Assembly: GCA_964016885.1 (NCBI GenBank)
Contig: OZ024740.1
Coordinates: 234,980,001 to 235,044,000 of the forward strand
DNA: 64,000 bases
Reading direction: 5' to 3'
From: Eledone cirrhosa
Lineage: Eukaryota
In this document: positions 18,593-24,545 of the stretch, in pieces
Numbering within the stretch: the first letter of the stretch is position 1
Layout of the letters: each line of letters begins with the position of its first letter
The notes under the pieces: model-generated
Told to the model about the DNA's origin: nothing
Databases searched by the model: none
Seen by the model: the letters and a program-made list of their open reading frames with translations, nothing else
Position numbers and translations under genes: made by a program

Positions 18593-18625
<33 letters not shown>

Positions 18626-18833
18626 GGCGACCTACGTAGTAAATCGTATCATCGTGAGCTCCGCAAAGGTTTGTTATTTCCGTTTGTTAAAAATTGCCAT
18701 TTATGGAAAATTTTATTGTTAACTGTTTATAAGCACACATACATTGTTTTCCGAAAAGGACACCCAAAGAGATTGGGGCCTTGTGCCCAAAATTTTAACT
18801 TTTATTATTATCAAAAAATTTCTTTGAAAAAAA

Positions 18834-20809
18834 ATGGCTACTTCACCTCTGCACGAAGCAGCTGAAAGCCTTCCTCACAAAATAACACCTCACACCGACA
18901 CCACCATTGTAAATGTTACTACGTTTGCCAACACAAAAAAAAATATAAGCAGTAGCAATATTTTAAATTTGTCTCAGGCAGACATTCATTTCCCGCCATT
19001 ACCAATGACTGCAGGTGTTAAGGCCTCCACCACCACCACCACCGCGACAACCACCACCACCACCACCACCGCGACAACAGAAACAAAAGAAGAAAAAAAT
19101 AAATTAACTCGTGATGTCGAAATGAAATCAAGCAAAATGGACTCTTCCGCACCAAAGACGACTGACGTCACCACCACCACAACTGAAACCAAAATTAATA
19201 TTAACGATAGCAACAACAACAACAATGACATTATAACCCCCCCCCCCCCCCTCAGTTTCGCCAGAGTAGCAAAACAGTTCGAAGATTATACGGTAACTCA
19301 GGAGGATTTAGAAAATGCCAAACAAATGGTAAAGAAAGATGGGTACAGGGTCAGCCTCACTCCACCCCCCCCCCACCCACCTAATAAAATGGAGCATCGG
19401 CGCCTATGCACCGTGTCGTATAGAACACTAAATGTAAAATCGCGCCGAGTGGAACGGGCATCCGAGTCCCAAATTCAAAAAGCTTTGGGACATGTGTGGG
19501 CAAGAAAAACCCACACCAGACGTGGGCAAAAGTATGGAACCGTGGATGTGTTCTTTGAAACACCAGAGGAGGCTAGAGAACACTCTATGGCCCCATTAAA
19601 AAGTGACGACTTCACACTCGTCCCAAGCTATTGTGGCCAGAGACTCGTAAAGATCAGGGTGACCCACGTTCCACCGGTCATCGAAATTCCCTGGCTAATA
19701 GCGGCTGTCCTCGCCGGCATCGAAGCCAACACGAAAATAATAGCAATAGCAAAAGAAAAGCAGGAAAACTGGTCCGGATCTGGGATGGAGCTCCTGATCC
19801 AAGCGGACCAAAAAAGCATTGAGGAGATCCCAGAGATAATAGACCTCACTGACGGCAGCCACCTCACGGTAATTGTCGAGGGCAGAAGACCTAGGTGTGT
19901 CGTTTGTGGTGAAGGAACCCACCTAAGGGCTTTCTGCCCTCAGGCTAAAAGGTTGAGGCCACCTCTCCTACCCACCCCAGTGACACAACCATCAACACCA
20001 CCAGTAGCAGAGATGGCAGCAACAACTGTAGCAGCAACAACAGAAGCAACTATAACAGCAACAACCCCAGCAACAGTAGCAAAACCAACACCACCACCAC
20101 CCAACACTTCAGAACTAGCACCAGCGCCTACACCATCCACCACACCACAACCAAAACTAACGGCTGTGGAGGATTTTCCACTCCCCGGCCTATCACAACT
20201 GGAGACAGATTGTGACGACGAGGAGTGGGAAACAATATCCGGAAAAAAAAAAGAAACCAAAAAAGAAAAAAATCTCTTCCTTCCCCCTCCAAAAACAAAA
20301 TACAGAGGGAAACAAATAAACTAAGAAACAAAAAAGTTAGGACAGATATGCCACCATCCACACCAGCATCACCAACCCCATCAACCCAAACACCAACACC
20401 ATCACCATCATTAACTCCAACACCACCATCACCTACACCACAAAAGTCACCAAAATGCGAAACAGAAACAAACCCACAACAAACGCAAACAAAACAAAAC
20501 AACCAAAACGATACACACTACACAGCATTAAATTTGAACAACAAGCAATTATTACACTACATCCAACACAACACCAGCATCACAGAAAAAGACTACACAA
20601 CAACCCCAAAATTCACACCACCTCCACACATACAAATCACTCGCATCACACAGAAAACGTACATGACACTAAAACAAAAATTCCCCAAAGACATCGGAGA
20701 CTTCCGACAAGCACTCTCCAGGAGGATTTATAAGGACATCCTTCCTGAGGAGGCCACAAGCAGTGAAAAGGATGGAAAAGCCGTCCTTCCCCTACGAGAA
20801 GTAAGGTAA
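18834..20809 (+). CDS. LINE ORF1 (RRM-like region plus CCHC zinc knuckle); probable frameshift in the A-run at ~20243-20252
   Basis: CVVCGEGTHLRAFC knuckle; ORF 18834-20324 overlaps ORF 20225-20809 across a homopolymer. Confidence 0.8.
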
Positions 20810-20843
20810 GTGGTCTTTCCCATCTTTTCCACTCCTTTTCAAC

Positions 20844-23800
20844 ATGACCTCACTCAGAATAGGCAGCATAAATGCACGTGGCTTGGGGTCGTCATGGAAG
20901 CAGGGCCACCTGCTCAACGACCTCAGGTCACTAAACATAGATGTAGTGGCCATCAGCGAGACCAGAATCTCCGAGGCACAGGCTTTCGCACCGATCTTCG
21001 GCGGCTACGATGTGTACGCATCTCCCAGCCGTCCGGGATCGGGGGGAGGAGTTGCTGTGCTTTTTCGGAGAGGTTTGGATCTTGCCATACGGGCCATCTT
21101 CCTGGACCCAGAAGGTAAGTTGGTGGTGCTGGACGTGACCAGCGGAGACGGGCAAGCTTTCAGGTTAGTGGCCGTCTATGCCCCGACAGGAGCAGGGCGG
21201 CCTGATTTCTTCCGGCGTCTGGAGACCTTTCTTGGAACGTCCCGCTCTTTAGTGTTAGTGGGCGACTGGAACGGGATCTTAGATGCACGCTGGGATTGTG
21301 TGGGATTAGTGGATAGAGAAGGAGGGTGCAAGAGTCTCACCAACCTGCTCAGACGTTTTGAACTGTCTGACAGGTACCGAATGGATTTCCCGAATGTACC
21401 AATGTGGACTTGGACAAATCGCATAGGGTCATCCAGATCATATCTAGATAGAGTATTTTGTAGGGAAATAGATAGGTCTAGCATAGGCTGTCCACAATTC
21501 AAGATAGTCAGCTACACGGACCACACATTCGTGATCTGTGTGCTTGACTTAGATAGGCTTCATAGACGAGGACCCGGCTACTGGAAGCTAAACGCGTCCT
21601 TACCAGCGCGCAAGGCCTACAGAGACCGGATTAGCGAACTAGTTAAGCGGGCGTTGACGGGGGCCATCGTTAACAACAAGTGGTGGTTTGCTCTGAAAAG
21701 AGCAATTAGAATAGAGTCCATTAGGTTTAGTAAGACTTTAGCAATAGAGAAAAATAGAGCAGAGGGAGAACTAGTTAGAAAATTAGATGAGGCGCTTAGC
21801 AAAGGTATCGCGACCGACGTACTTGCGGCGAAATTGGCCCTTGACCAATTCTTCAATGCAAAGCACGAAGGCTGCGTTGTCAGAGCTAGGGTGCGTGCTC
21901 TCAGACACGAGGGGACGAAAGCCGTTCAATGGGCCCGAGTGGCGGAGGCGCGTCGTGGCAACAAAGCCACGATCCGGTCTTTGGTGGACCACGACGGGCG
22001 CATGCTACTCGATCCCGGGCAAATGTGTGAAGCTTTTCAGCGACACTTCGCTCAACTGTTCGGGGGCAGTGGCGGGCCGGATCGAGGGATGGACTTTAGT
22101 GTCTACCTCGACGGACTGCCGCGGCTTTCGGCCACTGAGGCGGAGTGTTGCGAAAAGCCGATAACAACCGCTGAAGTACGGGATGCAATGACTAGTTGCA
22201 CAAGGGGTAAATCGCCTGGTTTGGATGGTCTGCCCTATGAACTTTACGTACAAATGCCAAACTTGTTCGGAGGCCTCTTGGCGGACGTCTACTGCAACTG
22301 GCAACAGAACGGGAGAATTCCCAGCTCTGTGAGCCGAGGAGCGGTGGCGCTGCTGAGAAAGGATCCGAACAAGGAGGATAACATAGATAATTTTAGGCCC
22401 ATAACTCTGCTAAACACAGAGTTCAAGATTTTGGCCAAGGTGCTAGCAAAGAGGTTGGCGCTTGTCGTTCGTGGTCTGGTGGGAGAGGCACAGACATGCG
22501 CCATTCCCGACAGATCCATCCACGACAACCTCCACCTCATGCGATACATCGTAGAGAGGGTAGCTAGGGAACCTGGCACGGGTGGGTCTTTGATCAATTT
22601 AGATCAGTCGAAAGCCTTCGATAGGGTCGACCATCGTTACCTAACGGCAGTCCTGAGGGCGGCTGGCTTTGGGCCCGTCTTCAGAGGCTGGATCGCTGCC
22701 ATGCACAGCGACATCTGCTCTGTAGTGAGAGTGAACGGTCACCTTTCGGAACCGTTCAACATCATGCGCTCGGTCCGCCAAGGATGTCCCCTCTCGTCCC
22801 TATTGTACGTGTTGACTCTCGAGCCATTACTGCACAAACTGGAGACGTTGAGGGGGGTCCCGCGCGAACTAGGATGCGGAAGATCCGTGTCAGCATATGC
22901 CGACGATGTCACCGTAGTGGTGTCGAACGCCAAACACATCGAGGCGATCGGCACTACACTAAGAGAATACGAAGCGGTGACAGGAGCAATGATCAACCAG
23001 GAAAAGTCAGTGGGCCTGCAGCTCGGCACCTGGAGAGGCAGGTCCATGCCGTCCAACAGCGTCGTCGGGCGCTGGACGGACGGACCGGTTAAATTGCTAG
23101 GGGTCTGGTTCGGTCCAGACCTCCAGACGGACAAAAACTGGGACGAGGTGACGAGCAGGGTGGCTTCTCTCACCCAGAAATGGGCCGAGAGGAAGCTATC
23201 CCTGAAAGGTCGAGCGGAGGTGGCGAATGCGTACATCGCATCCGTCATCTACTACCGCCTGACCGTCGTACCTTGTCCTAAGCCCCGCCTGACTGCGCTG
23301 GAGCGTTTGCTCTTTCGCTTCTTGTGGAAGGGACGCGCTCCGATGGTCAGGCGGTCCATCTGCTGTCAACACCCGCTACGTGGAGGGCTGGGCATGCCGT
23401 GGCTGATGATGCGCAGACACGCGCTCAGGCTACGACATCTCCACCTCTTCCTCGACGGTGATCAGGTGTGGTCGCCGTTTGCAAGACACGTTTTTCCCCA
23501 GCTCGTCTCCTTGACGGAGCTGCAGTCCTGGGTCAAGCGAAGACCGAGAGGAAGCGCTTGGAGACTGGAATGTCTTCAGGCGCTCACAGCCCTCGACCAA
23601 TCGGGCAATGTGATCGGTGGAAACTCCACCTTGGCGTTCTATAGGGGATTAGTGGAGGGGAAGAGCGACGACGTACGTCGACGAAAATCAACTAGCCAAT
23701 CTCTTCGGAAGGACTTTCGGGCCGGGGCCTATGGACAACTTCCAGAAATCCCTGGCCTGGCAGTGCTACCGAGGAGCTTTGCCAGTTCGGGATAAACTCT

Positions 23801-24246
23801 ACAGGCATGGAGGTGCCGTCAGCCGGGCATGTCCGAGATGCGCGCAGGGCGACGAAACCGTCCTGCACGCACTCGTCCAGTGTCCGAGCATTGCTGACTT
23901 GTGGGTTTATGTCGAACACCTGCTGTCACGTGTAGGACCTATCCAGCTATCAGCTGAGTCCATCGTGAGGATTGCCCCGCCCCCTTCCTTTAGTCTGGAA
24001 GGGCAGGCAGTTTTTATCTGTCTGGTGGCCATGGCGAAAGAGATAGTATGGTGGACACGTTTGAAAGGGCTGAAGACGAGCACTTACCTCTTCGGTGATG
24101 CCCTGATTAACTTTTTCAAATTTCATTTGAAAAGGAAAATCAGGGTAGAGAGGGAAGTGCTCTCTTCCCAGCATTTTGTTGAAAGATGGGTGAGAGATGC
24201 AAGAATGGCCCGAGTGAATGGGCCGACTCTGAGTATATATCTGTAA
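20844..24246 (+). CDS. LINE ORF2: AP endonuclease, reverse transcriptase, C-terminal zinc finger; one frameshift near 23675
   Basis: SINARGL, ISET, VGDWN, YLDR, TDH (APE); FRPITLLN, DQSKAFDRV, RQGCPLS, YADD (RT); CPRC...H...C; ~17-bp deletion relative to the 3.2-kb paralog. Confidence 0.95.
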
Positions 24247-24494
24247 ACTAAAGGTGGAAAACTGGGAGAGGGCACTTGCCTTGGTGGTCAGGGTCATTGT
24301 GGCTTTTTACTGGGCTTTCTCCACAAATGTCCCTCCGAAGTCTGCCCCCTATTGGGGAATTTTTCATTGTTATTTTTTGTTACATCCTCTGTTTTTGTTT
24401 TTTACACGCAGAAATGCCCATTTGTACCGTCCTGCATTGTCCTGCACTGTCCTTAATGTCTACTTTATGTAAACCCTTGTGGTTAATAAAGAAA

Positions 24495-24545
<51 letters not shown>

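Follow-up and report, generated by a model that had tools for sequence, protein, structure and literature searches.

Sister LINE families of an octopod genome at different short target motifs: probable choice by the endonuclease

Introduction

In the stretch of 64,000 nucleotides (nt) of the Eledone cirrhosa genome considered here (contig OZ024740.1, forward-strand positions 234,980,001 to 235,044,000; the window), a full-length long interspersed nuclear element (LINE) of a subfamily named A stands between runs of ATT, and two 5'-truncated copies of its relative, subfamily B, stand at runs of ATCT (Table 1). The locus raises the question of whether such elements choose these repeats and, if so, which of their parts makes the choice. 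We consider it probable, at roughly two chances in three, that sister LINE families with two open reading frames (ORFs) sit at short motifs of their own (ATTAT for A and a subfamily C, TATCTAT for B, and ACTCTAT for a further subfamily, E), the choice being led by the endonuclease. The motif was found on both sides of truncated copies and in one orientation, no poly(A) was inserted, and a switch of target occurred within the ATCT group. A reading made from the window sequence alone (the sequence-only reading) had proposed a radiation of related site-specific elements with changed targets; the radiation proved wider than that, as E adds a third target, whereas the target itself was a short motif and not a microsatellite as such, above all for A.

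Flanks of truncated copies

The 3.0-Gb genome was searched with the 3' portions of A, B and C and of an old A-like fragment of the window. Most of the best matches were extended to 7-7.5 kb, and 180 different copies whose 3' end was intact were retained (94 A, 50 B and 36 C). An ATT run of at least 8 nt followed 92 of 94 A and 26 of 36 C copies, an ATCT run of at least 10 nt followed 38 of 50 B copies, and crossed tails numbered 0. The absence of poly(A), asserted earlier for the three window copies, extended to all 180.

The 5' junction lay beyond the retrieved DNA in 26 A, 1 B and 1 C copies. All full-length copies had their own repeat upstream (44/44 A, 4/4 B), but these flanks were set aside as proof of targeting because the RNA may carry the upstream repeat, as the 5' ends of E show. 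The fair test lay in the 5' flanks of those copies whose truncation falls in the last 3.7 kb, junctions farther upstream being counted apart because the 5' modules vary. ATT stood upstream of 12/20 truncated A copies (60%) and 14/25 C copies (56%), and ATCT upstream of 30/39 B copies (77%), with no cross-matches (A 0/20, B 0/39, C 0/25) and a single repeat in the opposite orientation (A 0/20, B 0/39, C 1/25). At the same thresholds, the background in 40,000 random 36-nt windows, drawn from 20 random 10-kb genome regions, was 0.7% for ATT and 0.15% for ATCT (single-region maximum 1.6% and 0.7%, respectively), and the A and B flanks differed from each other with Fisher p values of 1e-7 and 4e-9. 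The end of a relative lay just upstream of 17/68 A and 15/49 B copies, forming head-to-tail piles; without the copies nested on a relative's tail, the repeat was still present in 8/15 A, 18/27 B and 11/22 C flanks. The outcome named beforehand as fatal to targeting, random 5' flanks, was thus not what we observed: truncated copies carry the repeat of their own subfamily upstream, in the right orientation and without cross-over. The published mark of a target-specific LINE, one sequence type in more than 20% of flanks (PMC4494074), was exceeded by A, B and C at the shares given above and by E at 26/27 3' ends.

(CT)n was considered as a target of B and rejected, since the junctions fall in the ATCT part and (CT)n merely adjoins at some B sites.

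Target duplications and length of the recognised motif

Thirteen target duplications contained non-repeat letters, of which two (L093, L196) were artefacts of tandem or uncertain 5' ends; the 11 usable ones measured 13-18 nt, with one of 22 nt. In 10/11, the duplication started 1-2 nt after AATAAAGAAA, the end of the element body, with ATTAT (A) or TAT(CT) (B), and the eleventh had one extra ATCT unit. Because the duplications begin about 2 nt after AATAAAGAAA, the flanking repeats are target DNA and not RNA tails, and almost no repeat was copied from the RNA. Likewise, the existence of copies with almost no repeat tail (L046, in (TA)n; L130; L133) indicated that long RNA tails are not required.

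The share of repeat-flanked sites was compared with that predicted if any such motif in random DNA were used. For A, ATTAT predicts that 27% of sites pass the threshold and ATTATTA 85%, against 60% seen; for B, TATCT predicts 13%, TATCTAT 52% and TATCTATCT 98%, against 77% seen. A match of 3-5 nt alone predicts 0.5-27% repeat-flanked sites versus the 60-77% seen, and 6-8 nt fits, so that the recognised unit would be about 6 nt for A, which appears looser, and 7-8 nt for B. It is thus the motif to which A and B are specific, microsatellites offering it at the highest density. In random DNA, runs of (AT)n (288) and (AC)n (38) are far commoner than those of ATT (9) and ATCT (3), yet they are seldom used.

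A third target: subfamily E

The common 3' end GTGGHWAATAAAGAAA occurred 28,570 times in the genome, against 30 for the reversed control. NN-ATTAT followed in 10,457 of these, and 14,373 matches had TCTAT within 4 nt of the end, a figure that includes single ends counted twice (8 cases among the first 100 rows). Roughly 15% of the ends fitted neither pattern. On C1, 49 ends of the two non-A types were sampled by position (40 regions); most had ATCT-type tails from several subfamilies, and 8 belonged to subfamily E and were followed by non-microsatellite sequence. This target of E is a 72-bp tandem repeat with 40,428 exact 26-mer matches in the genome. At 4 of 5 LINE-free loci, the repeat lay in a small element terminated on both sides by TTAA-CCCTTTAGCATTTA, that is, TTAA with the inverted termini CCC...GGG (TTAACCCTTTAGCATTTA / TAAATGCTAAAGGGTTAA); judging by its ends, this host is a piggyBac-like non-autonomous element (miniature inverted-repeat transposable element, MITE). 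Two other identities of the 72-bp repeat were discarded: it is not the 5' untranslated region (UTR) of E, since it mostly occurs without E, and an RNA gene was dismissed with no Rfam match in the 5 loci.

Two search patterns gave 325 and 334 copies of E, or about 330. It was in register in the 72-bp repeat at 93 of the 94 places where both lists overlap and at 26/27 retrieved ends, six of these in one array, and its register is that of B: TCTAT follows 4 nt after GAAA. Full-length copies join 65 nt into the unit. The last 25 nt before E were canonical at 23/25 junctions versus 97/224 internal units (p 2e-6), with no enrichment in the 32 nt preceding them (9/25 versus 63/224), from which it follows that the 5' end of a full-length LINE can carry target sequence. 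On the 3' side, array-specific variants appeared from 5-10 nt after the element end.

Six E copies stand head to tail, 5.7-7.1 kb apart, in one 72-bp array (G000:C1:4221057-4260371; L266-L269), and further such runs lie on C10 near 40.72-40.75 Mb and 41.39 Mb. Upstream of a single 65-nt unit, two E copies, L274 (~950-1500) and L275 (~760-1312), have in common 550 bp of sequence (94.7% identical) that may be a 5' extension or a transduction.

ORF2 phylogeny and ORF1 modules

A FastTree phylogeny of ORF2 was built from 41 of our own rows and 9 database proteins. Since sequence of an adjacent copy had entered three of these rows (L138m_2918, L139p_7347, L241m_9623) and the tails of five were decayed, a maximum-likelihood tree (IQ-TREE) was restricted to 14 of the 41 rows with 4 database proteins. 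In both trees, ATT rows were separated from ATCT and E rows (IQ-TREE support 99/100), and E was sister to two ATCT rows (96/98 in IQ-TREE). A single clade of the 7 ATCT rows excluding E was rejected by the approximately unbiased test (p-AU 0.0012), the tested group having been chosen after the FastTree result was known. The ATT rows formed an open fork at the root. These trees show that the target follows the ORF2 phylogeny and place the origin of E inside the ATCT group. The ORF2 proteins of E and A2 (see below) are 70% identical. The ORF2 proteins P0002-P0010, P0101 and P0102 form a sister group at 40-45% identity, whose targets would root the target history.

An ORF1 with a CCHC knuckle was present in A1, A2, B, C and E. 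Subfamily A combines two 5'/ORF1 modules, A1 and A2, with one ORF2, and both sit at ATT; C has a third module, also at ATTAT. The ORF1 proteins of A1 and A2 are 52% identical in the core, and the junction to the common ORF2 lies at element position 2137 (L091-L125 versus window 18626-20760), a pattern that we read as an exchange of modules between young copies. The ORF1 of A1 shares only 27-33% identity with that of B, C or E. As the A1 and A2 modules differ and yet both sit at ATT, ORF1 is unlikely to be the target determinant.

Comparison of the endonuclease domains

The endonucleases of the three target groups align without gaps at ~64-75% identity (majority residues identical: A/B 153/240, A/C 180/240, B/C 156/240), and the catalytic residues N10, E39, Y112, D141, N143, D202 and H227 are invariant. 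A model of the E domain (mean predicted local distance difference test score, pLDDT, 90.9) had the L1 endonuclease 1vyb as its best match (E 1.6e-18, template-modelling score 0.84). The betaB6-betaB5 hairpin, located by alignment to the L1 endonuclease, has the sequence TNRIGSSRS in A and TNRMGSSRS in C, whereas B and E share TNRSGTSRS. The hairpin-loop residues, to which the sequence-only reading had looked for an explanation of the target change, differ between A and B at two positions only and are identical between B and E. As the sole determinant of the change from B to E, the loop was ruled out by this identity despite different targets.

The segment after YAP reads TGAG in A and C, FWAA in E and, within the ATCT group, SGTP (B), TGQS or FGAE (other families). 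It aligns with the alphaB1-betaB3 loop of L1 (residues 117-120), in which Asn118 touches the major groove (PMC8565326), and residues 16-17, adjacent to L1 Asn19 in the alignment, also change with the target group. From these alignments, we infer that the change of specificity lies mainly outside the hairpin, with residues 115-118 after YAP and 16-17 as the best candidates. Fixed differences between the ATT and ATCT groups amounted to 24/240 in the endonuclease and 15/340 in the reverse transcriptase (RT), about twice as dense in the former; those between ATCT and E were 20/240 and 15/340, and the C-terminal part had 26/359 and 20/359, respectively.

A bolder proposal, which we regard as rather doubtful, is that E represents a full target change, from the ATCT microsatellite to one phase of the 72-bp repeat, with no change in the hairpin loop, to which APE specificity has long been ascribed, and in which ~20 endonuclease substitutions, centred on the gained Phe-Trp in the major-groove-facing loop, would have lengthened a 7-nt preference to single-site specificity, independently of Xenopus Tx1L.

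A short interspersed element at the ATTAT site

The window also holds an abundant repeat resembling a short interspersed nuclear element (SINE), represented in Table 1 by one copy and elsewhere in the window by ~15 others. Its 3' end, GGCCTTGTGCC..AAAGTAGAAACA followed by ATTAT, resembles that of A and C. Among 46 ends from the window and the random regions, ATT came next in 39 and an ATCT run in 0, and duplications of at least 10 nt were found at 17, most starting with ATTA in non-repeat DNA; those at ATTAT measured 15-19 nt. The SINE was likely moved by ATT-group LINEs. ARAGORN found no tRNA in the window, the SINE included.

Choice of the target

Under endonuclease-led choice, the apurinic/apyrimidinic (APE) endonuclease of each family would nick its own motif, and the RNA would read through AATAAAGAAA into flanking target sequence; the nicked bottom strand would pair with the first read-through bases, a few matching bases sufficing to prime, and reverse transcription would thereby skip any poly(A). 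A second nick ~15 nt away would produce the target duplication, and as every insertion would renew the target, copies would pile up head to tail.

Several observations weigh against this reading. The copies are the best search matches and not a random sample, and a few of them duplicate one another (L041/L042, two in L036). Among truncated copies, the repeat falls below threshold in 8/20 A, 9/39 B and 11/25 C; subsequent SINE insertions, deletions or inversions account for some of these. Of the junctions that lie in the ORF1 region, just 1/4 A, 1/6 B and 3/10 C have the repeat. Runs exceeding the duplication length may stem from slippage after insertion, and two truncated E copies duplicate only ~9 and ~2 nt, unlike A and B. 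Since target, RNA tail and ORF2 are passed on as a unit, the tree cannot tell the part of the enzyme from that of the RNA. In the endonuclease itself, the hairpin is identical or nearly so across targets, the loop after YAP varies among ATCT families with a common target, and the twofold excess of fixed differences is weak evidence, since endonucleases usually evolve faster than RT. Furthermore, the L1 endonuclease reads DNA shape more than bases (PMC8565326, PMC1950540), and loop grafts in L1 failed to transfer specificity (PMC1950540). In favour of the endonuclease, that of Tx1L nicks in vitro almost nowhere but at its own site (PMC1950540).

The alternative that survives best, although we hold it to be clearly the less likely, is that the RNA makes the choice: a loosely specific endonuclease would nick many AT-rich sites, of which only those pairing with 6-9 nt of read-through repeat would prime, and a single off-target insertion that became a new master copy with a new tail would suffice for a target switch. 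The recognised length of 6-8 nt inferred above falls in the priming range, and the hairpin loop and the TCTAT register common to B and E, together with the ATT adjoining most ends of a SINE with a LINE-like end, agree with it; human L1 needs ~4 matching terminal bases (PMC3649969), and RTE elements link a 3' microsatellite with the start of the duplication (PMC6007223). E, however, keeps one phase of the 72-bp unit almost without exception and did not turn up in the ATCT arrays, which are abundant and also contain TCTAT, although its local variants imply that fewer than 10 nt come from the RNA. Insertions with nearly no tail match exist as well, and on either side of a deep split the targets are constant over many subfamilies, where tail-led targeting should switch often.

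It is improbable that the particle is instead tethered to the repeat by ORF1, the C-terminal domain or a host factor, with the endonuclease secondary. The low identity of ORF1 between A1 and B, C or E and the fixed differences in the C-terminal part would be in keeping with tethering, but A1, A2 and the third module of C all use ATTAT, and a single-base register is more simply set by a nick.

The weakest alternative, that there is no real targeting and the repeats are RNA 3' tails, with upstream repeats arising from nesting, slippage or survival in neutral repeat-rich DNA, could draw on the head-to-tail piles, on full-length RNA that may carry an upstream repeat as in E and on a microsatellite-rich genome, but it is largely refuted by the 5'-flank and duplication results (enrichment without the nested copies, unique-letter duplications beginning with the motif on both sides, strict orientation, no cross-over), as well as by the little-used (AT)n and (AC)n runs and by an empty paralogue of the window site that holds (ATT)4, and we consider it very improbable.

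Relation to known elements

The elements have the features of the L1-group APE type: their ORF2 combines an APE endonuclease at the N terminus with RT and a Cys/His domain at the C terminus, ORF1 is separate, copies may be 5'-truncated and duplicate 13-18 nt of target, and long terminal repeats (LTRs) are absent. The best solved full-length relative of ORF2 was L1 ORF2p (E 2e-50), far above R2. ORF2 (queries of 1139 and 1128 amino acids, aa) scored 311 bits against the coral protein P0105 and 175 against human L1, P0105 being one automatically named protein (Transposon TX1 149 kDa protein) at 32% identity. Membership of the Tx1 clade is tentatively favoured by the architecture and by this one automatically named coral protein. 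With human L1 ORF2p (PDB 1vyb, 8uw3), the elements have the same domain order and endonuclease fold and a similar duplication length; unlike human L1, they have no poly(A) tail, their targets are not T-tracts, and the lower bit score sets L1 behind the TX1-labelled protein.

Dong, an R4-clade element with a restriction-like endonuclease, uses the same repeat type as A and C, which differ from it in carrying an N-terminal APE domain. It sits on TAA repeats and is reported from silkworm, mosquito and snail (PMC3812793).

Microsatellite- and transposon-specific Tx1 elements are already known in vertebrates. Kibi and Koshi are teleost Tx1 elements on (TC)n and (TTC)n (PMC4494074), and crocodilian Tx1 families sit on (TTCC)n/(TTTC)n (PMC4494074, PMC3812793). 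The families here resemble these in being APE-type two-ORF LINEs that favour one microsatellite, related families using different units. Junctions in the (TC)n, (TTC)n, (TTCC)n or (TTTC)n of the Kibi/Koshi lineage were not what we found; they lay in the AT-rich ATT or ATCT runs, in a mollusc-like genome with 28,570 common 3' ends. Xenopus Tx1L inserts in Tx1D, a non-autonomous piggyBac family, and the crocodilian Tx1-Mar and Tx1-9_AMi insert in DNA transposons (PMC4494074). E resembles Tx1L in that it occupies one fixed position within a non-autonomous element whose ends read TTAA-CCC...GGG-TTAA; unlike Tx1L, it is a recent offshoot of ATCT-microsatellite families of the same genome, and its hairpin loop has the L1 length of 9 residues between anchors, against 11 in Tx1L (PMC1950540).

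Among named sequences, the only close match was a fragment within a gene model of Octopus sinensis (66% over 6% of the query), in keeping with an octopod lineage. A 2026 annotation of Octopus vulgaris lists 80 L1-Tx1 families, 13 of them recently active, and the term "target site" is absent from its text and supplement as accessible (PMC13282606). Our literature search returned, in the accessible texts, no account of ATT- or ATCT-specific Tx1 elements nor of cephalopod Tx1 targets, and Repbase, Dfam and subscription papers could hold one.

According to a review, microsatellite targeting by APE-type LINEs is not well understood (PMC3812793). The known specific elements are too divergent for residue-by-residue comparison. 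The value of the present families lies in a natural series of target change at close range: with three targets among gap-free endonucleases of such similarity and with recent near-identical copies, swapping domains and tails can tell the role of the enzyme from that of the RNA. The families also matter for the structure of octopod genomes, as their ends interrupt ATT and ATCT arrays and duplicate them.

Insertions and other repeats of the window

Table 1. Positions of the LINE copies, their parts and associated repeats in the window (counted from its first letter).
Feature	Position	Strand	Remarks
Old A-like ORF2 fragment	3054..4217	-	83% to A; both ends lost; without microsatellite flanks
Dispersed repeat whose end carried the target	18461..18606	.	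97% over 146 bp to paralogue 40114-40258
(ATT)11.7, 5' side of copy A	18591..18625	+	
Copy A, full-length LINE, subfamily A, 5' module A1	18626..24496	+	~96-97% identity to other copies
ORF1 of copy A	18834..20324	+	496 aa; one CCHC knuckle (CVVCGEGTHLRAFC)
ORF2 of copy A	20844..24246	+	APE endonuclease ~20844-21560; RT ~22370-23105; zf-RVT ~23746-23904
3' UTR of copy A	24247..24496	+	End CCCTTGTGGTT-AATAAAGAAA-TC, without poly(A)
(ATT)14.7, 3' side of copy A	24497..24540	+	
SINE-like repeat, abundant	24546..24730	+	LINE-like 3' end; 13-nt flanking duplication ATTATTATATATA; ATTAT site in common with A
Subfamily C 3' fragment (ATT group)	31553..31885	-	Both junctions now adjoin SINE copies
(CT)n then (ATCT)n array, 5' side of B1	36934..37040	+	Last ATCT is the junction microhomology
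B1, 5'-truncated subfamily B copy	37041..38197	+	1.16 kb
B2, 5'-truncated subfamily B copy	50312..53510	+	3.2 kb; stops and internal deletion

The sequence-only reading of the window junctions held up in the main. Copy A does lie between two ATT runs of about the lengths it gave, and B1 was indeed joined through an ATCT microhomology, 4 nt at 37037-37040 common to element and flank, with unique sequence from 37041. ATCT does flank both B1 and B2 on either side, but the 3' runs comprise only ~3 units each: AATAAAGAAA of B1 extends to 38195 and is followed by TA and TATCTATCTATCT (13 nt) and then by (CT)n, and the body of B2 (50312-53508) is preceded by (CT)n and (ATCT)5 and followed by CA and TATCTATCTAT (11 nt). 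The three copies have AATAAAGAAA as their common end, as stated there, but two variable bases come next. The A-like fragment at 3054-4217 and the C fragment at 31553-31885 had been left out.

The paralogue of the dispersed repeat is without a LINE and ends in TTATTATTATTAC followed by (TA)n, with (ATT)4 ahead of the (TA)n, an analogue of the empty site. ORF1 of copy A had no credible match in Pfam. Its ORF2 matched Exo_endo_phos (7.7e-14), RVT_1 (3.3e-29) and zf-RVT (8.9e-9) and, compared with copy L104, has lost 17 bp near 23676, which breaks its frame. DNA identity is 71-74% between A and B and 95.5% between B1 and B2.

Other repeats were noted in the window. Pieces of another RT-bearing LINE type with RVT_1 matches lie at 26705-27370 and 32507-34340, each near a (ACT)n/(TAC)n run, and 32750-34340 consists of two opposed pieces resembling a 5' inversion. 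A decayed stretch resembling an LTR retrotransposon at ~27400-30050 contains several stops and frameshifts and a weak rve match (29055-29447, E 1.5e-4). Long inverted repeats of MITE- or foldback-like appearance, with arms of 300-700 bp at 93-99%, occupy 15830-18167, 41447-42325, 47402-50049 and 8961-9759, and one such arm ends ~430 bp upstream of copy A. A 2-kb (GTG)-rich minisatellite at 10354-12430 has a higher-order period of 105-111 bp and several open frames with no Pfam match, and a ~59-bp tandem repeat of 7 units at 54949-55361 lies within a 213-aa open frame, also with no Pfam match.

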